Source of the DNA: Klebsiella phage iPHaGe-KPN-11i
Reading direction: 5' to 3' (one strand)
DNA length: 64,000 nt
Sequence record: OR637327.1
Of this stretch, positions 34,944-52,587 are shown one piece after another (position 1 is the first letter of the stretch; each line of letters starts with the position of its first letter). The position numbers and the translations under genes were made by a program. The notes below the pieces were generated by a model. The model was given only the letters and a program-made list of their open reading frames with translations. It had not been told where the DNA came from and did not search any database.

Positions 34944-37193
34944 ATGAAATTACGTCAGTTAGCACCACAAACCATTCACACAACGGGCTTCGATAAAGGC
35001 GAACGCACGAAGTTTAAAATGGCTACCAGTGCGAAAACGTTCAAAATCCTGTCATCAACCATCTACAAATACAAGATCCGTGCAATCATTCGCGAGATCT
35101 CCTGTAACGCCATTGATGGACATCTGGTAGCGGGTAACATGAACCCGTTCGATGTTCAGTTGCCAACTGTTCTCGACCCGCGTTTCATCGTCCGTGATTA
35201 CGGCACAGGGTTAAGTGACTGGATGGTTAAAGAGGTGTTTACAACCTATTTCGAATCCACCAAAACCGACACCGACGAACTGATCGGGGCGCTGGGACTG
35301 GGTAGCAAATCCCCGTTCTGCTACACCGAAACATTCACTATCGAATCCATCCAGGACGGCGTTAAACGTGCGTACACGGCTTACATGGATAACGGTGAAC
35401 CTTTCGTTGACCAAATCTACGAAATCGAAACAGACGAACCTAACGGCGTTCAAATCACCGTTCCGGTTAAAGTCGAAGATATTGCAGAATGGGAACGTGA
35501 AGCGGCGCGTGTTTACGAACCGTTTACGGGCATCCGTCCTCGCTTTATCGGTGTTCAGGTTGATGTAAACTGGCAACCAAAAGAAGCAGACGATCGCGGG
35601 ATCATCCGTTATAAGTCTATCAACTATTCAGGCGTATACGCGCGTATGGGTAACATTTGCTATCCAATCGACATGGACATGTTCGAAAACTCGCTGTTCT
35701 ACTGCTACCGTAACAGCAGTTATGCGTATATTCTGGATTTCCCTCTGGGATCGCTGGACTTCATGCCGTCGCGTGAAGAGTTGAGCCTTGATAAAGTCAC
35801 CAAAAAAGTAATCATGGATCGACTGGAAAAGATCAACAAACGCTATGACGAAGAGTTAGTTGCGGAGTTCGGCAAGCAGAAAACGACCCGTGATAAAATC
35901 GTATGGTTCAACAACCTGCCTGGTTTGTTGCAGGGGTTCGTAACCCGTGATAATCGTTTCCGTGTGGGTAAAGATTCACTGGCTGAAATTCTGACGCATC
36001 TTAAAAGCTCTGAGACTGCAACCGGAAAATATGTCTGGGGATTCTGGGCGAACCCATATGACGGGAAAGATTGCGTATATGAGCGCGTTGGATCTGGTCG
36101 CCGTCATGAGAAATACAAAGCAGAAACCACCAAACGCCAGGACGTTATGCGTATTATTCAACCGTGGCGACAGAAGAAACTGTTCATCGTTGAAAATGAC
36201 AATGAAGCGCGTTCACTCCGCCCGTATCTGATCGGTTACTGCATGTTGCATGGTTCGGATCGTATCAGTTTCGTAACCAAAGAGATTAATAGCGATCCGG
36301 TTCAGGACTTGATCAGAACTGGGTACTTCGATGAATCCGAAATCGTTACACTGAAAACCAGTGAATTGACCAAAGAATTCGAAGTATACACCGAAGATCG
36401 CAAACGCTGGAAATCAACGCGTGAATCATCTTCTGGTGATTATGAATCGCGTCCGAAAACGCCTACTGCATATCATTACTTCCTGGATGATCAGGGCAAC
36501 TTACAGAAAAACGATCTGTACCTGACCAAAGCACAGTTCGTGAATCTGGATGAAATGTACGCAATGCGCCTGTACGGGATTGATGAATATAGCCGACTGG
36601 ACGGCGAAGCACCGAACTATTCGTTGGGTAGCATCGCAACCAGTATGATGACCATGTTAAAGGTCACAGGGCTGGAAGGTGTGATGGTTCTGCGAAACTC
36701 TCTGTGGAGTCGCATTCCAGATAGCAACATGAAATGCCTTGATGATTATCTGGTAAAACGTTTTGCGGACGCAGCGAAGAAGATAAAACCTAACTGGTTC
36801 CCTGCATGGATTTCATCAAACCACGGAAGCGAGATCCGAACCCTGCGCGATTCTATGGGCGTAACCCTTGATCGCATGGTTAAAAACCGCTATAATCCAG
36901 AATTGTATCTGTTGCTCGATTATCTTGATGGTAAGTTTACCTACGATACTATCGAGGGCAAAAACAAATCAAAAACTGTGGTGCGTAACCTGTTACTTCG
37001 TGAAATGTCAACGAAGTATTACAAAATGCGGAAAGATATGAAAGAACGCGTTGATACTGCTTACGATTTATTTGCAGAACGCAACCCATCAATTCATTAC
37101 ATGTTGTTGCATTCATCTTATTCTACATTCCGCAGTATGTTTAATGATGATAAAATTGTGATGGATTTGGTCAACCTTATACGGTGGAAATAA
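34944..37193 (+). CDS. rIIA: rIIA membrane-integrity protector (GHKL-ATPase-like N-terminus)
   Basis: KTFKILSSTIYKYKIRAIIREISCNAIDGH...DPRFIVRDYGTGLSD...GLGSKSPFCYTETFTIESI is colinear with T4 rIIA. 749 aa versus 725. Confidence 0.9.
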   Translation: MKLRQLAPQTIHTTGFDKGERTKFKMATSAKTFKILSSTIYKYKIRAIIREISCNAIDGHLVAGNMNPFDVQLPTVLDPRFIVRDYGTGLSDWMVKEVFTTYFESTKTDTDELIGALGLGSKSPFCYTETFTIESIQDGVKRAYTAYMDNGEPFVDQIYEIETDEPNGVQITVPVKVEDIAEWEREAARVYEPFTGIRPRFIGVQVDVNWQPKEADDRGIIRYKSINYSGVYARMGNICYPIDMDMFENSLFYCYRNSSYAYILDFPLGSLDFMPSREELSLDKVTKKVIMDRLEKINKRYDEELVAEFGKQKTTRDKIVWFNNLPGLLQGFVTRDNRFRVGKDSLAEILTHLKSSETATGKYVWGFWANPYDGKDCVYERVGSGRRHEKYKAETTKRQDVMRIIQPWRQKKLFIVENDNEARSLRPYLIGYCMLHGSDRISFVTKEINSDPVQDLIRTGYFDESEIVTLKTSELTKEFEVYTEDRKRWKSTRESSSGDYESRPKTPTAYHYFLDDQGNLQKNDLYLTKAQFVNLDEMYAMRLYGIDEYSRLDGEAPNYSLGSIATSMMTMLKVTGLEGVMVLRNSLWSRIPDSNMKCLDDYLVKRFADAAKKIKPNWFPAWISSNHGSEIRTLRDSMGVTLDRMVKNRYNPELYLLLDYLDGKFTYDTIEGKNKSKTVVRNLLLREMSTKYYKMRKDMKERVDTAYDLFAERNPSIHYMLLHSSYSTFRSMFNDDKIVMDLVNLIRWK

Positions 37194-38092
37194 TGAGAAA
37201 CGTTAAGATCCTTGACGATGTACAGAAGAAAGCAGTCTATGAGGGCTTTCTGACCAGCGCAAACAAAACCGCACTGGCTAAACAATTTGGTGTAAGCGTC
37301 CGAACCATCGGGCGCGTTATTACCGAGCAACACGCTAAGTATAATGTGGAAGCATCTAAACCACTTCCGCAAACAGATGTCAAATCTAAAATGATTGGTT
37401 CTGAATCGTTCATTACTCTGGTACTGGACGGCAAGATCATCACAGCGGATTCGTCACACCCTAACTTCGAAAAAGCACACGCTTTGATGGTTAAGGGCGA
37501 CATCGAGGGAGTTGCTACCCTGTTGGACACAACGCAAGCGTTGAAGATTTACAGCAAAGGCAACATTAAAATCATCGGGCATAAAGTCCTGTACAAAGAT
37601 ATCGTGTTTGACAGCGGTATCACGCAACGTATCGTTCGTGAAATGTACAATGATCGCCCTTACGAGCACCTGGTGAACTTCTTCGAGAAGTTGATGGAAA
37701 ACCCTTCACGCGATGCTGTGTATCAGCTTTACGGGTTCATGGTGCATAACGATATCGAACTGGCAGATGATGGAGATTTCTACGCGTGGAAACGTGTTCG
37801 TGAAGACTTCCGCGATCTGGCTTCTGGTAAGTTCGATAACTCCCCTGGTGTTGTGGTTGAAATGCCACGTAACCAGGTAGACGAGAATAAAAACCGAACC
37901 TGTTCATGCGGTTTGCATGTTGCCGCAAAATCGTACCTTCCTCACTATGGCGGAGGACGTGGGCGAGTCATTCAGGTTAAGGTTAATCCTCGTGATGTTG
38001 TAGCAATCCCGACAGATTACGATAACGCTAAGATGCGCGTATGTCGTTATCAGGTGATGCGTGATGTAACTGTGGGATTCAGTCACTACTAA
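37193..38092 (+). CDS. rIIB: rIIB
   Basis: FGVSVRTIGRVI..., LMENPSRDAVYQLYGFMVHNDIELADDGDFYAWKRV, FDNSPGVVVEMPRNQVDENKNRTCSCGLHVAAKSYL, RVIQVKVNPRDVVAIPTDYDNAKMRVCRYQV are colinear with T4 rIIB. ATG at 37193 overlaps the rIIA stop (TAATG). Confidence 0.9.
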   Translation: MRNVKILDDVQKKAVYEGFLTSANKTALAKQFGVSVRTIGRVITEQHAKYNVEASKPLPQTDVKSKMIGSESFITLVLDGKIITADSSHPNFEKAHALMVKGDIEGVATLLDTTQALKIYSKGNIKIIGHKVLYKDIVFDSGITQRIVREMYNDRPYEHLVNFFEKLMENPSRDAVYQLYGFMVHNDIELADDGDFYAWKRVREDFRDLASGKFDNSPGVVVEMPRNQVDENKNRTCSCGLHVAAKSYLPHYGGGRGRVIQVKVNPRDVVAIPTDYDNAKMRVCRYQVMRDVTVGFSHY

Positions 38093-41318: not shown

Positions 41319-41590
41319 CACACGACGAAGCCATGAAAGCCGCTACACGCGGTTTTAAAGTCGCCCCTGTGGGTAAGGCTGGGTTCTTTGTATATCACAG
41401 CGTAGAGGCTGGTTTCCGGCGAATTACGATAGGGAACGTTGGATACTGGAACGATGAATATGTTCCGACACCTTACGAACTTATGCGCGTATGGGACATA
41501 TACGATAAAAGCCCGATGACGAAAGTAAAAGATTTCATCAATCGGGCTTTGAGTAGTTTGAAACTGAAATTATCATCGAATCCTGCCTAA
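41315..41590 (+). CDS. hypothetical protein (91 aa)
   Basis: ATGA overlap. Last plus-strand gene; convergent with holin t. Confidence 0.4.
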   Translation: MTHDEAMKAATRGFKVAPVGKAGFFVYHSVEAGFRRITIGNVGYWNDEYVPTPYELMRVWDIYDKSPMTKVKDFINRALSSLKLKLSSNPA

Positions 41591-42217
41591 AATTCTTGCG
41601 GCCTGATTGCACACGATCATTAACTTCGTATCGACGACTTCGGGCTTCTGTATATACCATTCCATTAGAATCGATCCAGAATAATAGTTTTCGAGATTGA
41701 AATAAGGACAACTAAAGGTATATGCTACCGGAACAAGGTTTTTTGTTGGAAGATACGGGCTTGCAATATCTGAGATATAGTACAGCCCGTTTATATGTCT
41801 ATTATACTCTTCCGATGTCTTGTCTATAGGATAGCCACCCAGATTTTTCGGGTTAATCTGTTGCGGTAACTTCCCTTCATACGCAATTATATCAACAAAA
41901 TAATTGACATTCTTAGGTCTGAACCCAAAGATTGCCGAAAAATCCGCACCCGTAGTTAAATGCACTATGTTTAACTGTTCGATGGATGCGGATTCAAACT
42001 TTTTTGCCTTTTCAATATCCATCGTCGGCACGTCTATAACGCTTGAAGATGTTTTCCAGACTGAAAATAAGTCATCCCACTTGTACCATGTTACAAACAT
42101 AATGAAAATAGTGACGATAAGAACCAATTTAATGAATAACTGTTTCCATGTTTTGACCGCCATGATGAACGATATTACCCGTTCAAGCACCGCCAATTTA
42201 TCTTGTAATAGCGACAT
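41573..42217 (-). CDS. t: holin T
   Basis: N-terminal TM segment, then LEQLNIVHLTTGADFSAIFGFRPKNVNYFVDIIAYEGKLP...GGYPIDKT...FSCPYFNLENYYSGSILMEWY...CNQAARILGRIR, colinear with T4 gpt (LEQLQIVHISSEADFSAVYSFRPKNLNYFVDIIAYEGKLP...CAQAARILGRAK). Confidence 0.93.
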   Translation of the reverse strand: MSLLQDKLAVLERVISFIMAVKTWKQLFIKLVLIVTIFIMFVTWYKWDDLFSVWKTSSSVIDVPTMDIEKAKKFESASIEQLNIVHLTTGADFSAIFGFRPKNVNYFVDIIAYEGKLPQQINPKNLGGYPIDKTSEEYNRHINGLYYISDIASPYLPTKNLVPVAYTFSCPYFNLENYYSGSILMEWYIQKPEVVDTKLMIVCNQAARILGRIR

Positions 42218-42270: not shown

Positions 42271-42789
42271 TTAACGTTGAGTAACCAAACCAGAACGGTT
42301 TTGGCCTACACGGGCGTTTAGATAGTCATACCATGCGGTTGTTTGACCAGAAGAGATCTGATATTGACGATATCCGTCATGAACACGACCGTTATTATTG
42401 AAATCAAATACGCCTCCGTCATCCATAGTAAGCCGTAAGTTAACAGCAGGGCCGTTTTGGATGGTGATTACGCTAATATCCGGGCCTGATTGCGCAGAAA
42501 CTACAGTACCGAACGCATTACCATTAAAACTACCACCGACCGCAGGATAACCAGAAGGTTTTGAATATGGCGAGTACCAACCAACCCCCCACTGACCACG
42601 ATAACGGGCGTTGTTATAGTAACGCTCATACACTGTAAAGTTGATGTTATAAACGGACTGACCCGCCATTCTGGACATCCAGAAGGGTAAACCGATTCGA
42701 ACGGCATTACCAGCAGCAGACATCCACCGTTGTCCTGTTTCACCGACCGCAGACGATCCGATCCACCCAGGAACTCCTACAATAGCCAT
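42271..42789 (-). CDS. 38: gp38-type distal-fibre adhesin (short, 172 aa) with a T2-type N-terminal attachment domain
   Basis: N-terminus MAIVGVPGWIGSSAVGETGQRWMSAAG matches the conserved T2/T6-type gp38 N-terminus (MAVVGVPGWIGSSAVNETGQRWMS). Gly/Trp/Tyr-rich remainder. Confidence 0.7.
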   Translation of the reverse strand: MAIVGVPGWIGSSAVGETGQRWMSAAGNAVRIGLPFWMSRMAGQSVYNINFTVYERYYNNARYRGQWGVGWYSPYSKPSGYPAVGGSFNGNAFGTVVSAQSGPDISVITIQNGPAVNLRLTMDDGGVFDFNNNGRVHDGYRQYQISSGQTTAWYDYLNARVGQNRSGLVTQR

Positions 42790-42806: not shown

Positions 42807-42824
42807 GAGGGGCAATTAAGCCCC
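42807..42824 (-). terminator. hairpin overlapping the fibre-gene stop codon
   Basis: AGGGGCAATTAAGCCCCT; the TAA of the 737-aa fibre gene lies in the loop. No strong T-run. Confidence 0.35.
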
Positions 42825-45029
42825 TAATTTGTTTTCGATTACTTCCAGACGTTCGCGGATTTCATTGATTGCGTTCACCAGAAGCGCGTTAATTGCAGAC
42901 GGGGAGATCGTCAACATACCAGTATCGCGGTCTTCGCGTACTGCTTCCGGTAATACCTTTTCGACATCCTGAGCAATAAGACCGGATTCACGATGATATA
43001 CGATATCGTCTGCATCCTTAGATTGTTTATCGTAGATATAACCTTTAAGCTGTTCGACTTTTCTTAATGAATCTTTCAATTCAACAAGATTAGATTTCAG
43101 TCGAATATCGGAACGGATATAAACATCGTTAAAGTTAGCGTTACCTTCGATATACAGACCACGGTTCATGTATGTATCACCAGCACGTAATACTATAGCA
43201 GTATTCAACCGATAGTTATGCATAGTTACTTCTTCATCAGCGCCACCAAATCCTATATACATGCCGTTGTTACCTGCTTTTTGAATAAGCATGTAACACG
43301 ACGAGTTTATTGCTGGCCCATTCAATACCAACGCTGGCCCATCGGTATTTTGAACATAGAAACGCTTATATGATTGCGCAGAACCACCATCATTTGCTGT
43401 CCAACGCATGATACGCTGGCTGTTAGAATAAGCATCAAGATAACCGTCACCTTCCTGTCGGAATCCGGTATCGTCATCACCCAAACAAATAGCGTTTCCG
43501 CCTAAACCGTTCCGAGTACCACAACCAAGACCACTGTTAAACCTTGCGGAACCAGGAACAACAAGACCTTGAGAGCCGACCGTTACCTGTCCGTTACTGT
43601 TGTCGACCTGGAAAGGTCGATGCCCATTCCAACCACCATACGGATCTCCCGAATTAGTCAACAGGAAATATGTGTTCGCGCCATCGTTTCGAATAAAGAA
43701 CCCATAGTTTCCAGCAACCGCGCGGAATTGACCACCGCCACCAGGAGATGCACTTTGAATCTCCGCACGGGCGCGAACATAACCATCGGTTGAAACCTGT
43801 AATTCCTCTTCTTGGTCAGCAGAACCTGTTGCCAGTCTCCACAAACCACCCTGAACAGTTTCATGCCAGATAATGTCTCCGTTACCGCCACGGAACTGAC
43901 GCAAATAGTTTTTAGCACCAGTTGTTCCGCCAGATAAGAAATATTGCGCTGGGATATTCTGAGGAACATCATTATAATATGATTGAACGTTGATGCTAAT
44001 ACCGCCTTTAGTGTTGATAAACAAACCACCAGTACCACGAATATAATGATTATATAGTCCATTGCTATCTTTATAACCAAAGTGAGTAGCACCATCACCA
44101 ACCGCGTTTCCATCACCGCTTGTATCAACACGAAGAATTGATGTGTTCGCCCCTTGTGTAGCGTAATCAGCCCCAACATTCATTCTGCCATTAAACGTCG
44201 CCTGGCCTGTAAATGTTGAAAGACCAGGAACGGTTAGATGGTTTGCGAGAAGCAAAGTTCCATCAGAAGCAAAACGACTTGCATAAGCACCACCACCAGA
44301 TCGAACATACACGTTCTTCCCTGTATCTGCATAAATCAAACCAAGTTCGTTACCCGCAGAATCCTGGAAAAACAGGTTTCGGTTTCCGTCGCCTTTTGTG
44401 ATCAGTTGGGTTCCTGTTAAGTCACCAATGACCTTTGTACTCATACCAACGTTTAACGAAGCACCGGAAAGGTTAATTGAACCATCCCAGCCATTAAGCC
44501 CAATCTGAGCGCGTAGAATGCCCGTAGCGCCTGTTGTCTTGTTTGGTGCATCATATGCTTGCAGTTCGATAGAACCCGCCCCAGTAGTTGCCTGGTGCGA
44601 TAATAGAGCAGCAAGGTTAGCACCGCCAGCAGGATCGGAAGTATTCGATTTTGTGTTGACAAACAAAGTAAACGTGCGCGTATGCTGTGACGGGAACGGA
44701 TTTGTAACCGCGTTGTTATCTGAACGAGTAGTTAACAGATAAGGAGCATTCCCCGCAGTATCAGCAACCAGGTTAATACGACGAGGAACCGTTAACTGGG
44801 TGTTGTTCTTTAATGTCAGATTACCCGTCATTTCGTCGCCAGCTTTCTTCACCTGTGCATCATTCGTTACGTTGCCTAATCCGATTTCTGCCTTTGTTGG
44901 CTTATCGTTTTCGGTGTATACTTTATAGCCTTTGTATGTGATTGTGTTTCCAGAAGGGAGCAAAGGCAAGTTAGCCTGACTCCAGATAGTATTACCGCCA
45001 ACGGTAGTACCTGCTTTTAAATCTGCCAT
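42816..45029 (-). CDS. distal long-tail-fibre protein: gp36-like N-terminus fused to a gp37-like shaft, with a C-terminal S74-type intramolecular chaperone domain (737 aa)
   Basis: N-terminus MADLKAGTTVGGNTIWSQANLPLLPSGNTITYKGYKVYTENDKPT matches T4 gp36 (MADLKVGSTTGGSVIWHQGNFPLNPAGDDVLYKSFKIYSEYNKPQ). Shaft blocks THFGYKDSNGLYNHYIRGTGG and GNYGFFIRNDGANTYFLLTNSGD resemble T4 gp37/gp34. C-terminus DVYIRSDIRLKSN...GLIAQDVEKVLPEAV...ISPSAINALLVNAINEIRERL fits the auto-cleaving chaperone domain. Confidence 0.8.
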   Translation of the reverse strand: MADLKAGTTVGGNTIWSQANLPLLPSGNTITYKGYKVYTENDKPTKAEIGLGNVTNDAQVKKAGDEMTGNLTLKNNTQLTVPRRINLVADTAGNAPYLLTTRSDNNAVTNPFPSQHTRTFTLFVNTKSNTSDPAGGANLAALLSHQATTGAGSIELQAYDAPNKTTGATGILRAQIGLNGWDGSINLSGASLNVGMSTKVIGDLTGTQLITKGDGNRNLFFQDSAGNELGLIYADTGKNVYVRSGGGAYASRFASDGTLLLANHLTVPGLSTFTGQATFNGRMNVGADYATQGANTSILRVDTSGDGNAVGDGATHFGYKDSNGLYNHYIRGTGGLFINTKGGISINVQSYYNDVPQNIPAQYFLSGGTTGAKNYLRQFRGGNGDIIWHETVQGGLWRLATGSADQEEELQVSTDGYVRARAEIQSASPGGGGQFRAVAGNYGFFIRNDGANTYFLLTNSGDPYGGWNGHRPFQVDNSNGQVTVGSQGLVVPGSARFNSGLGCGTRNGLGGNAICLGDDDTGFRQEGDGYLDAYSNSQRIMRWTANDGGSAQSYKRFYVQNTDGPALVLNGPAINSSCYMLIQKAGNNGMYIGFGGADEEVTMHNYRLNTAIVLRAGDTYMNRGLYIEGNANFNDVYIRSDIRLKSNLVELKDSLRKVEQLKGYIYDKQSKDADDIVYHRESGLIAQDVEKVLPEAVREDRDTGMLTISPSAINALLVNAINEIRERLEVIENKLGA

Positions 45030-45055
45030 TATTAGATCCTCAAATGCTTTTATGA

Positions 45056-45063
45056 TATTTATA
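45056..45063 (-). promoter_or_regulatory. T4-type late promoter TATAAATA about 26 nt upstream of the 737-aa fibre gene
   Basis: Minus-strand TATAAATA (plus-strand TATTTATA at 45056-45063), between the terminator at 45071-45088 and the ATG at 45029. Confidence 0.6.
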
Positions 45064-45070
45064 AAAAGAA

Positions 45071-45088
45071 AAAGCCCCGAAGGGCTTT
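45071..45088 (-). terminator. intrinsic terminator between the two fibre paralogues
   Basis: On the minus strand AAAGCCCTTCGGGGCTTT followed by a TTTCTTTTT run. Confidence 0.6.
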
Positions 45089-45091
45089 TAA

Positions 45092-47239
45092 TTAGCGGGA
45101 TTTAAGTTCCCTGATTTCCTCACGAAGTTCTTTAATTGCGTTGACAAGCAAGGCAATAACCGCAGTCGGAGAAACCGTTAAGATTTCATTCCTTTCGGTG
45201 TCTTCACCAGTTTTAACCGCTTCCGGTAATACTTCGCGCAGTTGTTGTGCAATCAAACCAGCTTCGCGGGACGTAGGTTCACCGCCGACATGATCCGCTT
45301 TATCATAGATCACACCATCCAACAAATCAACTTTATCCAGCGCAGTTTCGATCTTACTGAAATTACTTTTCAGTCTTTCATCAGAACGAATATAAACATC
45401 GTTGAAGTTGCCATTACCAGATGCAGTAAATTGACCGTTACCATCAAAGAGATAATATGCACCGCTTTCGAGAATCAATCGGATGCGAGCTTGTGCGCCA
45501 TCATTATTTGGAATATGCGCATCCATAGCAGCAACATGAGTTGCTCCCCATACGCTAGCTTTCCAGATGTTATATGCTGAGGTAGCACCGTTAGGCATAT
45601 CGATCTGTAAACCAGAGGAACGGTCACGCCACTGATCCCAGCCACCACCATCAGGAGTACCACGAATCAACGCAAAATCAGTACCCGTACAAGGACCACC
45701 GCTATAGATCATACCACCTCGGAAATCCCAAGTGGTCTGACGAACGTTATTTGTTCGAATGTGGTATTGTCCGTTAGCCTCAGCCCATGTAACCGCCTTT
45801 TCAACGCCATTAAGCAAACGATACCAAACGACACTGATATCGTTTGCATCAAGGAATATGTTTGATGAACCACCCTGAGCACCGCTCAGTGTTAAACCAC
45901 CAGCGCTAGTAAGGGTGAACAATTCAGCAGAGTCTGTATCACCTGTTGCTAAACGATACGTGCCGCCCTGAACAGTTTCATGCCAGATCTGGTCTCCATT
46001 ACCACCACGGAAACGACGAAGATAATTCTTCGAACCTGTTGCGGTTGTGCTTAATGCAGAGGAACAATAAACGTTCTGGTTCAAGCCGTCCTGGTTGATT
46101 GTCCCTGTTACAACACCTCCTGTATTTTTAAAGAACAAATCATCAATCCATCCAGAAAATCCTACTTTATTGATATACACGTTTCCGTCATACGCAAAAA
46201 CACCACCGCCTTGCGTTTTAAGCGGTTGAGAAATAGGTGCCAGTGTTAAAACACCACTCATGGTATCTCCAGCTTTGTTTACTGCCCCTACTTCTGCCGG
46301 AGTTGGCGGAGTAGCAGTATCATAAATCCGTCGCCAACCATTAGCGTCGCCAGCAGACCAAGACCAAGCACCAGGAGAACCAGAACCGCTTCGAATCCAT
46401 GATGAATTTGTGTCATAGTAAGTTTGAACCAGTGATACACCACTATTCAACGTGCGTCGATATGTCGAAACCTGACCAGAATATGTAGTGTTACCATAAG
46501 GTCCATCGATCACGTTACCACCAACTGACAGAACATCGTTCTTTTCGGTTACAACAGCAGCACCAAAACTGTTTCCCTGCATACTGCGAGGAATACCCGT
46601 GATATAACGGTTATCGTGGTTTGTCCAATTAGTAGGAGTTACCGTATTAGCAGTAATTGCCCCGCTTACGTTTAACGCGGTTGCACTCACCGCAGCGAAG
46701 GTCGATGATCCGGCTACACGGAAAGAACCTAGTTCAACGGATACCTGCTGATTCGCAGAGTCAACAACAATGGAAGTATTTGATGTTCCGTTTTTGTATG
46801 CGTTCAGATAGATCCTATTACCACCATCAGCACGGGCGTTAATATTCAGAGTTGCCAACGTAACACCGGAAGCATTAACCCCAGTGATTTGCATAATGCC
46901 CTGTTCGGTTGAAGGTGTTCCCGTCACATCAGAACGTTTAAACAATATACCCGGAGCAGCCCCGCCCGTGGTGATATCGACATAACTTTTTGAATACAGC
47001 GTGTTCGCTGTTAAGTTAATACCTACGGTCACGCTTTGGTTGAACGTGGTGTTCTTCGCAACAGTACCGCCGTTGATCGTCGAGAGGGCGTTTATATCCT
47101 CCGCTGTTGGACGATCGTTTTCGGTGTATACTCTCCACCCTTTATACGTCAATCTGTCGCCAGAGGGCAGCAGAGGGAGGTTTGACGCACTCCAGATACC
47201 CGCACCACCCAGCGTTGTACCTAATTTCAAATCAGCCAT
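45092..47239 (-). CDS. second distal-fibre paralogue (715 aa): same gp36-like N-terminus and C-terminal chaperone domain, divergent receptor-binding middle
   Basis: N-terminus MADLKLGTTLGGAGIWSASNLPLLPSGDRLTYKGWRVYTENDRPT. Shared block KNYLRRFRGGNGDQIWHETVQGGTYRLATG, also present in gp34 and the 737-aa fibre. C-terminus NDVYIRSDERLKSNF...GLIAQQLREVLPEAV...VSPTAVIALLVNAIKELREEIRELK. Confidence 0.8.
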   Translation of the reverse strand: MADLKLGTTLGGAGIWSASNLPLLPSGDRLTYKGWRVYTENDRPTAEDINALSTINGGTVAKNTTFNQSVTVGINLTANTLYSKSYVDITTGGAAPGILFKRSDVTGTPSTEQGIMQITGVNASGVTLATLNINARADGGNRIYLNAYKNGTSNTSIVVDSANQQVSVELGSFRVAGSSTFAAVSATALNVSGAITANTVTPTNWTNHDNRYITGIPRSMQGNSFGAAVVTEKNDVLSVGGNVIDGPYGNTTYSGQVSTYRRTLNSGVSLVQTYYDTNSSWIRSGSGSPGAWSWSAGDANGWRRIYDTATPPTPAEVGAVNKAGDTMSGVLTLAPISQPLKTQGGGVFAYDGNVYINKVGFSGWIDDLFFKNTGGVVTGTINQDGLNQNVYCSSALSTTATGSKNYLRRFRGGNGDQIWHETVQGGTYRLATGDTDSAELFTLTSAGGLTLSGAQGGSSNIFLDANDISVVWYRLLNGVEKAVTWAEANGQYHIRTNNVRQTTWDFRGGMIYSGGPCTGTDFALIRGTPDGGGWDQWRDRSSGLQIDMPNGATSAYNIWKASVWGATHVAAMDAHIPNNDGAQARIRLILESGAYYLFDGNGQFTASGNGNFNDVYIRSDERLKSNFSKIETALDKVDLLDGVIYDKADHVGGEPTSREAGLIAQQLREVLPEAVKTGEDTERNEILTVSPTAVIALLVNAIKELREEIRELKSR

Positions 47240-47262: not shown

Positions 47263-47270
47263 TATTTATG
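47263..47270 (-). promoter_or_regulatory. variant late-promoter-like box CATAAATA upstream of the 715-aa fibre gene
   Basis: Minus-strand CATAAATAC about 24 nt upstream of the ATG at 47239, just downstream of the terminator hairpin. Confidence 0.3.
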
Positions 47271-47274
47271 AAAA

Positions 47275-47290
47275 AGGGGCTTTCGCCCCT
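47275..47290 (-). terminator. intrinsic terminator after gene 35
   Basis: Minus-strand AGGGGCGAAAGCCCCT followed by TTTTT. Confidence 0.55.
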
Positions 47291-48883
47291 TTATCTCACG
47301 ATTGACAGTTTAACGTCTTTAGCCGATACCGTACCGATGTTTGTGTTGTTTGGATAACGGTATAAACCGAAATCAAACGTAACAGCACCAGCAGGAATAA
47401 CCCCTTCGTTTTTATAGAATGAATATACGTTAGGAATCGTACCAACATCACGCATGTTGATCCCTGAAATATACGTATTATTCGCGTCCCAGAACTGCAT
47501 TAAGATATATGCGCCTTTATTGTTGGCGATTGCGTTTGCATCGCGTTTCATTTGGCATTGCATACGGATCGTATCACCAGCTTTTAAGCCATAACTGCTT
47601 AGTGATGCTTTTGTTACCGCCTCTTGCTGGGTAGCAGTCCATTCTTTGAACTGGTACTCCGCTGTATTTGTCGAAGTGTATTCAACCGGATCAGAAACAA
47701 TATAATCAAGTTCAGCAAAGTTATGCGAAATGATTTTCTTATCACTTGCAACACCAGTAGGCGAAACGGGTAGAGAAAGCAATTTATCAATCGGGTTCTC
47801 ATTTCCGCTTGCGTCCACTTCGGAAAGTGTCTGCATTCGAACACCGTTCACACCAAGCGCAGCACCATTCCGGTTTATTTCTTCGCGAGGTACTTTTGCG
47901 ATCTGGACGTTGCGACATTGCGCCAGCCCCACTTTAACGGTAGACGGATAATGATATACCTGCGAACCCATTTTGGTGTTTACCGGATCTGACGGAACAG
48001 TGAAATATCCTGATAATGAATGCCACTGATCGGGGGCTAATCCAGTTGTTCGAAGAATGGTTGATGTGATCCATTGTCCGGTACTGTTTTCAGTCCACAT
48101 ATACAGGTGAACTTCCCCCCCTGCATCACGAAGTTCTTGCGAACAATATAGTTCACCCGTGAATTTGAAGATATCACCCAGAAAAACATCACTACCAACA
48201 ATCCACGTCCCGTAAGAGTGGAAGCCATAAAGATCCCCGCTATTCTGGTATGTCTGGACATCATCGACCATTCTTTCTGGAATACCAGTTACCCCGATAT
48301 CACTGAATTCATCAAACACAACTTCAACAAAACTCGTCGTATTGTCTTTCAGGCTACCAGCACCACCGACAAAGTTTTCCATGCAAATCTTTTTCATCGT
48401 AGATGAATAGATAGCTGAATAGGATGAACGGTGAGAATAATTGGTTGTGGTGATCGGGATATTAAAGAACCGAGTTTCAGGCCACGCAACAGAACCTATT
48501 TTCCTCATTGTTGCTAAAAAGTCATCGTCACTTTTGATAGCATCGAAAGTATAAAAACACACAATTCTGTTCGCTGGAAGTGAATTCAGGTAGTCTTTAA
48601 TCGCATTCCCGTTCGTAGCAGGATCACCATACATATCGAATGCCTTGTAATCCAATAATGCTAAAGTTGTTCCATCAATGACAGCCAGGTTAATTCCGCG
48701 AGCAGCTTGTGTTCGTCTGTTTATAATATCAGCCCCGTTAATAGATACCTCAACCGAGTTGACCGCAGAATCGTTATTCGTTCCACGGACAACAAGGCGA
48801 TATTTCACGGCGTTTGCTTCTGAAAACACATTCGCCGTGAAACTATCAGGGCCGAATAACGCCATAAATTCGTTATTCGCCAT
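47291..48883 (-). CDS. 35: long-tail-fibre hinge protein gp35-like (530 aa)
   Basis: N-terminus MANNEFMALFGPDSFTANVFSEANAVKYRLVVRG versus T4 gp35 MEKFMAEFGQGYVQTPFLSESNSVRYKISIAG; NRIVCFYTF versus NRIVAILTS. Sits between the gp34 and gp36-like genes. Confidence 0.75.
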   Translation of the reverse strand: MANNEFMALFGPDSFTANVFSEANAVKYRLVVRGTNNDSAVNSVEVSINGADIINRRTQAARGINLAVIDGTTLALLDYKAFDMYGDPATNGNAIKDYLNSLPANRIVCFYTFDAIKSDDDFLATMRKIGSVAWPETRFFNIPITTTNYSHRSSYSAIYSSTMKKICMENFVGGAGSLKDNTTSFVEVVFDEFSDIGVTGIPERMVDDVQTYQNSGDLYGFHSYGTWIVGSDVFLGDIFKFTGELYCSQELRDAGGEVHLYMWTENSTGQWITSTILRTTGLAPDQWHSLSGYFTVPSDPVNTKMGSQVYHYPSTVKVGLAQCRNVQIAKVPREEINRNGAALGVNGVRMQTLSEVDASGNENPIDKLLSLPVSPTGVASDKKIISHNFAELDYIVSDPVEYTSTNTAEYQFKEWTATQQEAVTKASLSSYGLKAGDTIRMQCQMKRDANAIANNKGAYILMQFWDANNTYISGINMRDVGTIPNVYSFYKNEGVIPAGAVTFDFGLYRYPNNTNIGTVSAKDVKLSIVR

Positions 48884-48888
48884 TTAAA

Positions 48889-51800
48889 TTATTCCTCCCA
48901 CACAAATTCACAAGTCTTAGTTGTTGGATTTGCGAAGATTTTTACGTTTCCGATTTTGATGTAATCACGAACAACCAGAGTATCTACAGTTGAACCCGCA
49001 ACCGCAACCGCCCCAATTTCTGCCGGAGTTGGTTTACGACCTGCATGATAGATCAGGTTTCCGTTGATCATCGCTTTGTTGTAATCGGTGATATTGATAT
49101 TGAATTCAGTCAATACCTTATCGTCAATGCCAGTTAAGCGCATCTTCTGGACGTTACCAGAGAAATCACCCGCCTGAACATGTGCCGTACCGCTCACACT
49201 GGTAAAGCGTCCACCCGTGCCGTTTACGCTAACTGACAGCGCACCAGTCATAGTATCACCCGCTGTATTGACATAGGTACTGTCAAGATGCTGGGTAAAG
49301 TTTCTGGTGTTGATTACGGTTGCAGTAGTCACGCCGTTATCATTACTGATTGTTACGCCGTTCCAACCGTTAGTTGCATCGGTTCGTAATTGTACCGTAG
49401 GACTTGCATCACTTGCAATAGTCACATCACCTGTTGCGTTCGTGTTAGCCAGTGCTTTACCATTCAGGCGCAGAGTAGTACCGGAGTACGCCATTGTACC
49501 GTTAGATACATCACCAACAGTCAGAACGTCGGTCGTGTCGGTTGTGCCAGTTGCCAAGCGATACGTAGTTCCCTGAACAGTTTCATGCCATGTAGTATCC
49601 GTCACACCGCCACGGAAAGTACGAAGCAAGTTTTTAGTTCCAGCGGTTGCTGTACTCAAAACAGTATTAGCATAAACCGTGTTTGCTTTCGCAGACTGGC
49701 TAATGTTATTGTTCGTGGTTACGGTGTTGTTAACAGTTACCGCAGCGTTAGCCGTCAGAGTCCCGTTAGTGGTTACTTTACCAACGAAGTTGCTTGTACC
49801 GTTGAACGTGTTGTTGCCCGTTACGGTTTGATCTGCATCACGACGCATCCAGCTTGCAGCTACCACACCGCCCAGTTTCAGGCTATTCTGTGCTGTTGCG
49901 TTCAACGGTAAGAAGTTTTGCAGAGCAAAGTTCAGACCGCGAGGCGATACAGCGTAGAAATCTTCCAGATAGCTATCTACAGGCTGAGTAGAACCAACCA
50001 GATTATCACCGATGAACGTGTTCGATTTGGTAGTGATAAACACCGCACCACGGCGCAATGTTGTAGCACCCCATGCCGGATCAGTACCGTTCAAGAACTG
50101 CATGGTAGCCGGAGTAATTGCCAGGTTAGTAGCAGTACCCGCAGCAGCTTCGCTGTTGGTTGCACAACGAATGATACCTTCGGCGGTATCCGTCGCTTTC
50201 TTCGCTTGCAGTTTCTTAGGCGTGATGACCACGTTATCCAGAGTACCCGCATCAGTTTCGCCCTGAGTCGCTACGCGCAGAGTACCACGCTGTGTTTCAG
50301 TAGCAGACGCAATCCCCAGGTTAACCGTTGTCCAGATAGTACCGGACTGAGTTAAACCATCAGTGGTAGCAACCGCAACATGACTCGTAACGTTGAAGAA
50401 CTCTTTCAGCTTAACCGGAACAACTGCCTTATTCGTTGCCGTACCTGCTGCAACTTCCGCAGTGGTAGCGAGGGCAATAATACCATCAAGCGATTCAGTA
50501 GCCTTGCGATCGTTCAGCTTCTTAGGCGTCACCGCACGGAGATCATCGGTTCCTGTGTTCGTTTCGTCCTGAGTTGCGATCTCAATCAAACCGATACGCG
50601 ATTCAGTAGACGTTTTACGATGGAGCATTTCAGGAGTTACTACGATCGGCATTGAAGCAGATCCAGCAGCAGCACCAGTTACCACTTCGTTTTCGGTCGC
50701 CAGAACAACCAGACCTTTTGACTTTTCGGTCGCCGTCTTCTCGTTCAATGATTTCGGAGTCAGTAAGTCAACACCGTTATTGAAGTTGTAGACGTTAGTA
50801 CCAGCATCCCCACGTAAAGCCCCCTCCGCTGTCGTAGCGCCCGTTGTAACGAGTTTCCCGATACCTGCTAGGGTTTCGGTCGCGCGGCGCGTGTCGAGCT
50901 TCTTAGGCGTGATTGCGGTAGTGTCATCAGTACCAGCGTTTGTTTCTGCCTGAGTTGCAATTTCCAGAACACCACGGCGATCTTCTGTTGCTGTACGTTC
51001 GTTAAACTTTTTAGGCGTAACAATTACGTCATCCAAAAAAGTAGCCGTAGTGTTCTGGTTAACTTCCGCAGTTGTTGCCAGACGAGCGATACCACGGCGT
51101 GTTTCCGTAGCAGTTTTATTCGCCAGTGTACGCGGGGTTACTGCCAGTTCATCAGAAGGCAAATCTTCCCAGTTTTTGTTTACTTCTGCCTGTGTAGCCA
51201 GCGCGATCACACCCAGACGAGAACGGTTTGTTGGATCAACACGTTCAATGATCGGGCGATATTGTGCAACTACCCATTCTTTCGTAGCTTTCAGATACGA
51301 CAATTCTATATATGGAAGATAGTCAGTATCGGCGTTGAAAGTCAGAGTGTCAACACTGAACCAGTCATCAGGTGGATAATCCTTACGCTGTGGGAACTGC
51401 ATCATGTTTTTGTTGGTGCGGATCTTTTCACCGGAATCATCTTTAACTTTGATTGTGCAGTTCTGCGTTTTCCCCATCATATACATACTGATATACACGC
51501 GATCACCTTCGGCAACATCTTGCGGAAGAGTCAGCGTTACGTTACGCACAGTTGGAGGACTACCAGCGATCGGGGTGATAAACACGTAATCGTTCGGCAA
51601 CATGTTCAGGTCATCACTGATACGACGCAGACGAACGCGCTGATCACCATCATAAACGACCCAGCGGCTATTAGCCTGATCGAACATGAAGATACCATAA
51701 CCGGAACGCTGTGAAGTCACAGAAGTTACGTTGTTGATACCGTCATAGCTGATCGTGTGTCCGCTACCAGGATAAACTTGCAGAGTCGCAACGTTCACCG

Positions 51801-52548
51801 AAGCAAGGCGATCCAGATCGTAAGTTGTGATTGAGTCACCATCGTTTGCGTATCTAGGCAATTGCAGAGTAATCTTGCCTGTACCGCTATTACGGAATGT
51901 TACCATACCCGCTTGCAGTTGGAAAGAACCCGCACCTGTTGCGTTCACAAACTGCGAATCGCGGTTATCGCGCATTTCAGAAACACGCCATAAGTTGCCG
52001 TTAAAAATAAACGCAACAGTCATATATGGGTGAGTCAGTCGATAAGAGCTTGACTGAATATCACGCAAACGGATCTGTCTGGTGTTTGAACGAACCAAAA
52101 GGTTGTTGAGACCTGCAAGACCGCCACCGTCTTTAATGGTGATAATATCACCCTCAACAGGGGAATCTGGTAGAATATATGTCAGTTCAGAGAAACGACC
52201 ATCAGCCAGTAAGTACGTACCGGATTCAACAGGGAGACCGTCAGTGCTCGTTACGTTGTTATATACCCATTTTGGATCGTTACGGGTTGAGATCCATTTT
52301 GTTTCATCGAAAGCACCCGCTGGTGATGGAATATCTGCGCGAGCGTACCAAATACGACGCGCGTACATGATAGCCATAAACGCAGCATAGCCACGGGTAG
52401 AATCGTATTGTTGGATCGTGTTAAATTCGTTAAAAAAGTCAACGTTCACGCCGTCGCTCAACACAGAGCGGGATGCTTTACCAACGTTGATAACTTTTTC
52501 GCCAGCAGCATCAAGGCCACTTGTGGCGCGGAATGATTTAGCTACCAT
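48889..52548 (-). CDS. 34: long-tail-fibre proximal subunit gp34
   Basis: N-terminus GLDAAGEKVINVGKASRSVLSDGVNVDF...QQYDSTRGY, repeats RLGVIALATQAEVN / TETRRGIARLATTAEVNQNTT / RRGVLEIATQAETNAGTDDTTAITPKKL and C-terminus GNVKIFANPTTKTCEFVWEE are colinear with T4 gp34 (...GNVRIVPDPVNKTVKFEWVE). Confidence 0.95.
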   Translation of the reverse strand: MVAKSFRATSGLDAAGEKVINVGKASRSVLSDGVNVDFFNEFNTIQQYDSTRGYAAFMAIMYARRIWYARADIPSPAGAFDETKWISTRNDPKWVYNNVTSTDGLPVESGTYLLADGRFSELTYILPDSPVEGDIITIKDGGGLAGLNNLLVRSNTRQIRLRDIQSSSYRLTHPYMTVAFIFNGNLWRVSEMRDNRDSQFVNATGAGSFQLQAGMVTFRNSGTGKITLQLPRYANDGDSITTYDLDRLASVNVATLQVYPGSGHTISYDGINNVTSVTSQRSGYGIFMFDQANSRWVVYDGDQRVRLRRISDDLNMLPNDYVFITPIAGSPPTVRNVTLTLPQDVAEGDRVYISMYMMGKTQNCTIKVKDDSGEKIRTNKNMMQFPQRKDYPPDDWFSVDTLTFNADTDYLPYIELSYLKATKEWVVAQYRPIIERVDPTNRSRLGVIALATQAEVNKNWEDLPSDELAVTPRTLANKTATETRRGIARLATTAEVNQNTTATFLDDVIVTPKKFNERTATEDRRGVLEIATQAETNAGTDDTTAITPKKLDTRRATETLAGIGKLVTTGATTAEGALRGDAGTNVYNFNNGVDLLTPKSLNEKTATEKSKGLVVLATENEVVTGAAAGSASMPIVVTPEMLHRKTSTESRIGLIEIATQDETNTGTDDLRAVTPKKLNDRKATESLDGIIALATTAEVAAGTATNKAVVPVKLKEFFNVTSHVAVATTDGLTQSGTIWTTVNLGIASATETQRGTLRVATQGETDAGTLDNVVITPKKLQAKKATDTAEGIIRCATNSEAAAGTATNLAITPATMQFLNGTDPAWGATTLRRGAVFITTKSNTFIGDNLVGSTQPVDSYLEDFYAVSPRGLNFALQNFLPLNATAQNSLKLGGVVAASWMRRDADQTVTGNNTFNGTSNFVGKVTTNGTLTANAAVTVNNTVTTNNNISQSAKANTVYANTVLSTATAGTKNLLRTFRGGVTDTTWHETVQGTTYRLATGTTDTTDVLTVGDVSNGTMAYSGTTLRLNGKALANTNATGDVTIASDASPTVQLRTDATNGWNGVTISNDNGVTTATVINTRNFTQHLDSTYVNTAGDTMTGALSVSVNGTGGRFTSVSGTAHVQAGDFSGNVQKMRLTGIDDKVLTEFNINITDYNKAMINGNLIYHAGRKPTPAEIGAVAVAGSTVDTLVVRDYIKIGNVKIFANPTTKTCEFVWEE

Positions 52549-52579: not shown

Positions 52580-52587
52580 TATTTATA
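52580..52587 (-). promoter_or_regulatory. T4-type late promoter TATAAATA for gene 34
   Basis: Minus-strand TATAAATA about 32 nt upstream of the gp34 ATG, downstream of the terminator at 52591-52619. Confidence 0.6.

Follow-up and report, generated by a model that had tools for sequence, protein, structure and literature searches.

In the window, by which we mean the whole 64,000-nt stretch of DNA from Klebsiella phage iPHaGe-KPN-11i (sequence record OR637327.1) that was analysed here, two distal tail-fibre genes lie in tandem, the first encoding 715 amino acids (aa) at 45092..47239 and the second 737 aa at 42816..45029; coordinates are those of the window and the features are on the minus strand unless stated otherwise. 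We consider it probable that these two genes encode autonomous, parallel distal half-fibres and not the proximal and distal segments of one rod. This reading is based on domain homologies, on regulatory motifs, on natural genomes of both kinds that carry a single paralog, and on a cassette-like exchange of the tips; docking at the knee, autocleavage, incorporation of both proteins in the virion and distinct receptors are what we infer. The first-pass annotation of this DNA had offered three options and had not chosen among them, which were alternative half-fibres, a branched fibre and a duplicated cassette. Their common core, namely parallel and independently expressed fibres, is what the results favour because either paralog is found alone in relatives, the paralogs can have chaperone or adhesin genes of their own, and neither has a gp37-type N-terminus.

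The two open reading frames (ORFs) have exactly the lengths and positions that the first-pass annotation gave them, and the similarity of the two proteins at both ends and the lack of it in their centres, as claimed there, were confirmed by pairwise BLASTP. The N-termini (residues 1-104 of the 715-aa protein and 1-107 of the 737-aa protein) were 47% identical with an E value of 3e-20 to 1e-19, the blocks containing the KNYLR module (368-447 versus 336-416) were 49% identical (E 5e-17), and the C-termini (588-715 versus 612-734) were 47% identical (E 2e-28). This likeness in three modules far exceeds chance. The segments between the modules, which are approximately residues 105-367 versus 105-335 and 450-590 versus 420-610, gave no significant and at most a weak alignment, the KNYLR module, which had itself been listed, being the exception in otherwise unrelated centres. 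This module starts at residue 404 in the first fibre (404-435, 45935..46030) and at residue 373 in the second, and its distance to the predicted cleavage site is 215 aa in the first fibre versus 267 aa in the second. It was also said to be present in gp34 and it is found there as KNLLR.FRGG..WHETVQG..RLATG from residue 972 onward, with 51-56% identity.

In T4, gp36 is located at the knee and bears at its C-terminus gp37, whose N-terminus is distinctive. The N-terminus of the 715-aa protein matched residues 1-72 of T4 gp36 with 47% identity (BLASTP, E 5e-19), and residues 1-89 of the 737-aa protein matched residues 1-80 of T4 gp36 with 38% identity (E 5e-15), as expected from the proposal that both begin like gp36. 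Residues 1-110 of T4 gp37, its N-terminal region, had no BLASTP match in either fibre protein, although farther along residues 274-347 of the 737-aa protein matched T4 gp37 336-408. Since both proteins start with a gp36 N-terminus and neither has the gp37 N-terminus, there is no T4-type joint between gp36 and gp37, which argues for the parallel arrangement. The ORFs of the window also include no small gp36 gene standing by itself between gp35 and the fibre genes.

Both C-termini matched the Pfam profile Peptidase_S74 (PF13884) over its full length (1-58 of 58), with E values of 1.6e-14 for the 715-aa protein and 1.9e-14 for the 737-aa protein, both above the cut-off of 22 bits, and thus the S74-type C-terminal domain predicted for both is indeed there. 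It occupies residues 619-715 of the first fibre (45095..45385) and residues 640-737 of the second (42819..43112). Position 1 of the S74 profile falls on an S-D-x-R-L-K motif, which is SDERLK at S619-K624 in the 715-aa protein and SDIRLK at S640-K645 in the 737-aa protein, and this stretch is strongly conserved in all of the aligned relatives. S74 chaperones have a Ser-Lys dyad with a 5-residue spacing, known from endoNF. Cleavage of the two proteins is predicted before S619 and S640 and would leave mature chains of 618 and 639 aa. Both fibres matched the gp37 chain of phage S16 (PDB 6f45, chain 6f45_A), to which the 715-aa chaperone aligned at 61-196 and the 737-aa chaperone at 84-185. The C-terminal 270 aa of phrog_1699, 'long tail fiber distal subunit', were matched by residues 459-715 of the 715-aa protein with E 4e-66 and by the 737-aa protein with E 3e-80. 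The 737-aa protein had Pfam matches to Gp34_trimer at 407-474 (E 1e-20), to gp37_trimer at 567-636 (E 7e-5) and to Peptidase_S74 at 640-698, and gp37_trimer matched this protein only and not the 715-aa protein.

That the second paralog works without the first is indicated by Klebsiella phage Fraggle_ER53 and Enterobacter phage Taquito. Fraggle_ER53 has a single distal gene between gp35 and gp38 (L001 2817-5039), in which residues 1-42 of the first gene are joined to the body of the second, and Taquito has a single distal gene right after gp35 (L011 4478-6691), in which residues 1-17 of the first gene are joined to a second-gene body with 90% identity to its counterpart in phage YI837. In the window, the fibre genes share 73% DNA identity over their 5' 135 nt, and the crossovers lie in separate islands of exact identity, which are GTATACACCGAAAACGAT in Fraggle_ER53 (15-19 nt) and TATCTGGAGT in Taquito (10 nt). 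Because both the islands and the backbones are different, the first gene was deleted by recombination twice and independently. An assembly artefact is unlikely, as the islands are only 10-19 nt long, the studies and backbones are unrelated, and related phages have genomes that are 2-3 kb longer. Neither record annotates the deletion. There are 61 phage records with a long gp35 and likewise 61 that match the unique body of the first gene; by genus these counts differ by exactly one record in Klebsiella (Fraggle_ER53) and by one in Enterobacter (Taquito), and the shortfall of these two in the first-body count is offset by a gene fragment of RB43 and by a Pantoea phage. From the by-genus counts these two appear to be the only records with a long gp35, 2 of 61, that are without the first-gene body.

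Taquito is a productive member of a characterised five-phage therapeutic cocktail (PMC12578640). In the same study resistance to Nando, which has two fibres, led to wzzB, which affects O-antigen chain length, whereas resistance to the single-fibre Taquito led to rfaQ of the inner core of the lipopolysaccharide (LPS). Nando and Taquito are not isogenic, their gp37 being 66% and their gp38 92% identical, and the contrast is circumstantial evidence that fits recognition of O-antigen by the first fibre and of core or porin, as in RB43, by a gp37-gp38 fibre. RB43 itself was considered as a natural null of the first gene, as its record NC_007023 has a 1-nt frameshift at about codon 21 (L009 11183-11300) and its coding sequence is annotated from an internal start. 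This was ruled out because AY266307 and HE858210 (RB43-GVA) carry an intact gene of 756 aa, and the frameshift in NC_007023 probably stems from an error in sequencing or from variation between strains.

The converse, that the first paralog works without the second, is indicated by more distant contigs. For this wider survey the long gp35 was used as anchor and the genes that follow it were read in contigs carrying gp35 homologues; a scan of IMG/VR with gp35 gave five loci, four of which were known isolates. In L021 (gp35 71% identical) and L023 (57%) gp35 is followed by a first-gene ortholog alone, of 865 and 788 aa, respectively, and then by the holin. Over residues 1-350 these fibres are 44-54% identical to the first fibre of the window (E 1e-85 to 1e-107). 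Pectobacterium phage POP12 (gp35 41%) also has a single fibre, of 800 aa. In L017 and L019, in which gp35 is 43% identical, orthologs of both fibres are present, both have Mu/lambda-type tips, there is a separate Tfa gene (phrog_136) after each, and a hairpin and TATAAATA lie between the two fibre-Tfa units. In L020 (gp35 48%) an S74 domain is present in the first fibre, after which, at 13774-14784, come a short Gp38_N adhesin of its own and a Tfa gene, and the second fibre has a Tfa-type tip. The Tfa gene of L020 thus stands upstream and not downstream of the second fibre that it presumably serves, which is an unusual order. L022, L024 and L025 (gp35 68-78%) have the plan of the window, L024 and L025 with a full T6-type gp38. 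Judged from these gene contents, either paralog may be able to form a whole distal half-fibre and each can own a system for the maturation of its free end.

Within the genus the tips of the fibres are exchanged in the manner of cassettes. In ten Pseudotevenvirus loci the identity to the window was 91-100% for gp34 and 73-98% for gp35, and it was 49-92% for the first fibre and 45-96% for the second. Both fibres have a conserved anchor of residues 1-60, a hypervariable, indel-rich region before the chaperone (338-613 in the first and 417-631 in the second) and a conserved chaperone. The hypervariable distal and tip region of the first fibre (45401..46228), which includes the KNYLR module and the T2-type gp37 tip, had a mean pairwise identity of 0.16-0.59 versus 0.7-0.9 in the flanks, and residues 1-60 of the second fibre, with 0.87-1.0, are the most conserved part of that protein across the genus. 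In the window the first fibre has a tip of the same type as the gp37, or second-fibre, tip of RB16 and RB43, which is that of T2-type gp37 generally, and the second-fibre tip is of a type other than that of RB16 and RB43. The tip of the first fibre switches type within the genus and beyond, whereas the N-terminal 60 aa of the second are nearly invariant. Docking of the second fibre on the first is hard to reconcile with so variable a C-terminus in the one and so invariant an N-terminus in the other, and parallel fibres fit both.

A pair of short motifs, PT.AE(I/V)G and, within about 20 aa, (K/S)(A/S)GD.M(T/S)G.L, occurs at residues 44-69 of the second fibre (44823..44900) and recurs inside the first fibre at residues 312-329 (46253..46306). 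In gp34 both elements are present but apart and in reversed order, GDTMTG at 1097-1102 and PTPAEIG at 1173-1179. It looks as if a 'start' like that of the second fibre were embedded in the first fibre past its initial 300 aa. An AlphaFold2 (AF2) model of the first-fibre shaft (residues 95-345, made from a 7-sequence alignment) had a mean predicted local distance difference test (pLDDT) score of 46.5, which is too low for use.

The regulatory motifs would allow each fibre gene to be expressed on its own. Between the two genes there is an 8-bp UUCG-tetraloop hairpin (45089-45070, -11.1 kcal/mol) and a T-run, followed by the consensus T4-type late promoter TATAAATA at 45063-45056, which lies 26 nt ahead of the start codon of the second fibre gene (the whole element being 45056..45089), and in this the terminator and late promoter that had been annotated here were found again. 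TATAAATA occurs twice in the window, the other copy being 31 nt before the ATG of gp34 (52580..52587, ATG at 52548). The first fibre gene is preceded by an 8-bp GAAA-tetraloop hairpin (-13.9 kcal/mol, z -4.1) with a U-run and then, at 47270-47263 and 23 nt before the ATG, by the near-consensus late promoter CATAAATA, which is one base off consensus (47263..47292 in all). The region with the GAAA hairpin and CATAAATA is identical in eight two-gene Pseudotevenvirus loci and in both deletion variants that were compared; in RB43 the hairpin is a variant one and CATAAATA is unchanged. In the compared loci the Shine-Dalgarno sequence of the first fibre gene is strong and the region upstream of the gene does not vary. 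The UUCG hairpin and TATAAATA between the fibre genes are kept across the compared Pseudotevenvirus loci with single-base differences only, and a hairpin and late promoter are kept between the fibre genes in the distant L017, L019 and L025 also. The intergenic layout of T4 genes 35 and 36 (UUCG hairpin, TTTTTCTTTTTATAAATA) is the same as that before the second fibre gene of the window. The string ATAAATA occurs 7 times in the 64 kb versus about 11 expected by chance, and 3 of the 7 lie 23-31 nt before gp34 and the two fibre genes; this suggests avoidance of spurious late promoters.

Under the parallel reading, the N-terminal module of about 60 aa, which is of the T4 gp36 type, would dock each trimer at the knee formed by the C-terminus of gp34 and by gp35. 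The shaft would come next, with the KNYLR module common to gp34 and gp37, and then the hypervariable tip of the T2 gp37 type. The S74 chaperone would fold the trimer and then cut itself off at the predicted site. The second fibre would be capped by the monomeric RB43-type gp38 encoded just downstream, and the first fibre may either have its own bare tip or be capped by the same gp38; the window has no second gp38-like gene, and the sole copy adjoins the 737-aa gene and not the 715-aa gene. With a hairpin and a late promoter for each gene, the two fibres could be made in different amounts. The virion would then show two kinds of distal fibre, probably with two receptor specificities, and either kind would be dispensable for viability. 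Between competition of the two fibres for a single site at the knee and their sitting there together as a branch, our guess leans towards competition.

Several observations weigh against parallel half-fibres. The summed mature length of the two proteins, 618 + 639 = 1257 aa, is close to that of T4 gp36 and gp37 together (1247 aa) and to that of gp34 (1219 aa), so that a serial arrangement would give equal half-fibres as in T4. A lone fibre of about 640 aa would make the distal half only about half as long as that of T4, alongside which stands the remark that the fibre size of RB43 suggests a single gp37 trimer (Trojet 2011, PMC3157838). L021 and L023 are metagenomic or SRA assemblies in which a displaced second fibre or gp38 may lie elsewhere. 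Fraggle_ER53 and Taquito keep the extreme N-terminus of the first gene, which leaves knee docking by the native N-terminus of the second gene unproven. The conservation of paralog-specific anchor residues means that the two anchors are not fully equivalent. Finally, no literature on the role of the duplication and no virion proteomics, electron microscopy measurements or adsorption data were found for any member beyond Trojet 2011.

The anchor residues are where a branched fibre comes in. In this alternative each knee would carry both arms, the second fibre on the ancestral site that takes Q18 and the first on a derived second site; there would be 12 distal arms with two specificities, for example a bare tip binding O-antigen and a gp38-bearing arm reading LPS core or porin. 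The anchor of the first fibre (residues 1-60, 47060..47239) has the signature GGAGIWSASN with A13 and A18, and that of the second (residues 1-60, 44850..45029) has GGNTIWSQAN with Q18. A13/A18, as GGA[GA][IL]W.ASN, was found in the first gene of 9 of 9 loci that have or presumably have two fibres, down to 43% gp35 identity, and Q18, as ..IW.Q.N, was found in all second genes, in the single fibres of POP12, L021 and L023, and in T4 gp36. From Q18 and the upstream layout like that of T4 gene 36 it follows that the second gene keeps the ancestral anchor and promoter context and that the anchor of the first gene is derived. The fixed residues mildly favour the branched fibre. They could mean a second docking site, or equally, selection against mixed trimers. 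The position-specific difference, which lies in residues 1-20 (47180..47239 and 44970..45029 in the window) and was also read in L017, L019, L020, L022 and L026, persists even after an exchange of shafts and tips between the positions, as in L020.

For the branched fibre, gp35 was considered as a knee with two sockets. It is 530 aa long versus 372 aa in T4, and its residues 422-503 are a second match to residues 219-296 of T4 gp35. In an AF2 model (pLDDT 75) it has an ILEI/PANDER-like domain, a sandwich like that of a carbohydrate-binding module (CBM), a low-confidence 'tower' at 334-390 and a second CBM-like sandwich at about 392-530, and the top Foldseek match of the model was the tandem CBM22 structure 4xup. 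The two-socket knee was ruled out, as the extra approximately 140 aa are a CBM-like sandwich and not a second tower-like docking domain. In all 20 homologues gp35 is 515-531 aa long, those of single-fibre phages included; since POP12, L021 and L023 have the extension, it does not track the duplication and was dropped as support for branching. The single CBM-like domain of T4 gp35 binds the fibritin whisker, and the tandem CBM-like pair of the window's gp35 might bind something extra. All in all we hold a branched fibre to be unlikely, though it deserves to be kept in view.

A serial arrangement like that of T4, in which the 715-aa protein would be an enlarged gp36 near the knee, the 737-aa protein would dock on its cleaved C-terminus and gp38 would cap the end, seems to us quite unlikely. 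The gene order is that of T4 genes 36, 37 and 38, the sum of 1257 aa versus 1247 aa in T4 and 1219 aa for gp34 would give the equal half-fibres already mentioned, and binding of gp38 to the fibre end exposed by chaperone cleavage is a precedent (PMC9569957). Paralog-specific N-terminal signatures could mirror different partners, and the deletion chimeras retain the N-terminus of the first gene, as this arrangement requires. Against it, the N-terminus of the second protein is of the gp36 type, with the Q18 shared by T4 gp36 and the single-fibre phages, and is the presumed knee binder. The face on which it would have to dock is hypervariable, and it is Tfa-dependent in L017 and L019 and capped by a gp38 of its own in L020, whereas the N-terminus of the second protein is invariant. 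In addition, phages with the first paralog alone exist, and two genes whose products would be needed 1:1 have a terminator-like hairpin and a new promoter between them.

It is also conceivable, but very improbable in our judgement, that only one of the proteins is used in the virion and that the other is a redundant duplicate or a reservoir for recombination. The first gene has been lost in viable isolates, its promoter CATAAATA deviates from consensus by a base, and one RB43 record has the frameshift at codon 21. The two other RB43 records, however, lack the frameshift, and the body of the first gene is apparently present in all but 2 of the 61 long-gp35 records. The gene keeps its strong Shine-Dalgarno sequence and invariant upstream region, it has been kept from a time before lineages with a gp35 of only 43% identity branched off, and in L021 and L023 the first paralog is the sole fibre. 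Mixed heterotrimers, in which the paralogs would assemble into one trimeric fibre, are hardly credible, since in spite of the similar N-termini (47% identity), KNYLR modules and chaperone domains (about 50% identity) the segments between the modules are unrelated and unequal, the 31-aa offset of the KNYLR modules would put a three-stranded shaft out of register, the L017, L019 and L020 fibres use different or separate chaperones, and the fixed A13/A18 versus Q18 are as expected under selection against mixing.

The tandem pair is a genus-wide and previously described feature and not a discovery, although the first-pass annotation had implied that it was new. In the GenBank record of RB43 from 2003 (AY266307) the genes are named 'gp 36-37.1' and 'gp 36-37.2', the gp36-like N-terminus is noted and the second gene is said to be 'organized in a similar manner'. 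These names suit the genes of the window better than the labels 'gp36' for the first and 'gp37' for the second. Trojet 2011 (PMC3157838) described the RB43 locus as a g37 duplication of unclear function. It was also reported there that the short RB43-type gp38 is a determinant of host range, with mutations at Q100 in RB42 and RB43. The published accounts neither settled the function of the duplication nor reported natural variants with a single paralog. The loci of RB43, RB16, GAP161 and about 60 other Pseudotevenvirus records have the same genes in the same order as the window, and nothing structural differs.

With the distal fibres of the T2/T6/S16 type the window shares the S74 chaperone, the T2-type tip before it and a downstream gp38 with Gp38_N. 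In T2 and S16 a gp37 of 1000-1500 aa is joined to gp35 through a small gp36 (about 220 aa), whereas the window is without this link, its gp36 N-terminus being fused straight onto two fibres of about 700 aa, and its gp38 is of the short RB43 type. T4 gp36 (221 aa) is homologous to both proteins of the window over its initial 70-80 residues, but it lacks a chaperone domain and is joined to gp37 by its C-terminus, whereas the proteins of the window have three times its length and terminate in free-end modules. A Jiaodavirus match (H35) was considered as another tandem pair and was ruled out, as it has an ordinary small gp36, a gp37 of 1509 aa and gp38. The combination of a chaperone fibre with gp38, which the first-pass annotation had called unusual, turned out to be the normal arrangement of T2 and S16, both proteins matching S16 gp37, and in most T-even-like phages gp37 as a rule ends in a chaperone that cleaves itself off, after which a gp38 monomer attaches (PMC9569957).

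Two other systems are comparable, namely the fibres of T5-like phages and the fibre genes of Aeh1. The T5-like fibre proteins LtfA and LtfB both have C-terminal chaperone domains and together two receptor specificities, and LtfB joins LtfA itself and does not use an anchor common to both. Aeh1 is a Schizo-T-even phage of Aeromonas. The branched L-shaped fibres of DT57C and DT571/2 consist of LtfA and LtfB (PMC4728585), which as in the window are encoded by neighbouring genes and are proposed to form one fibre apparatus. They are lateral fibres of a siphovirus, whereas the pair in the window has a common type of N-terminal anchor and either member may be able to stand alone. The g37 duplication of the Aeh1 type is described as having a small ORF after each copy (Trojet 2011, PMC3157838); it is tandem like that of the window and has the layout of L017 and L019, and the window differs in having S74 chaperones and one gp38 instead of Tfa genes.

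The locus in which the pair lies is a complete T4-type long-tail-fibre locus on the minus strand at 41.5-52.6 kb of the window, as seen from the ORF list and Pfam. Over its 11 kb the DNA is 95-96.5% identical to Klebsiella phage iPHaGe-KPN-12i, Cronobacter phage GAP161 and others and 90% identical to RB16, and from this identity the phage is, like iPHaGe-KPN-12i, GAP161 and RB16, classed as an RB43/GAP161-like Pseudotevenvirus. The proximal half-fibre gp34 (48889..52548, 1219 aa) is 46% identical to T4 gp34 over 972 aa, and the knee-cap gp35 (47291..48883) has a Pfam match to ILEI (E 2e-12) and is 25% identical to T4 gp35. After the fibre genes come the adhesin gp38 of the short RB43 type (42271..42789, 172 aa; Pfam Gp38_N, E 5e-21; phrog_1121 'tail fiber adhesin', E 3.5e-60) and holin T, at which the locus ends (41573..42217; Pfam Phage_holin_T, E 2e-55). 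Beside the locus, on the plus strand, are ORFs of 749 and 302 aa (34944-38092) that have no Pfam match; genes of relatives in a comparable neighbourhood match Phage_T4_rIIB, and these two ORFs may be rIIA and rIIB.

Many Pseudotevenvirus phages have been isolated against Klebsiella, Enterobacter, Cronobacter and Citrobacter, and they are already used in therapeutic cocktails. If the two genes do encode independent fibres, the host range of these phages would be set by two exchangeable cassettes together with gp38, and propagation on one host could silently delete a fibre, as has apparently occurred twice. This would bear on the prediction of host range, on the design of cocktails and on the engineering of fibres, and it would answer the question raised in 2011 about the role of the 'g37 duplication' of RB43. 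Fraggle_ER53 and Taquito, set beside their close two-fibre relatives, make that role directly testable.

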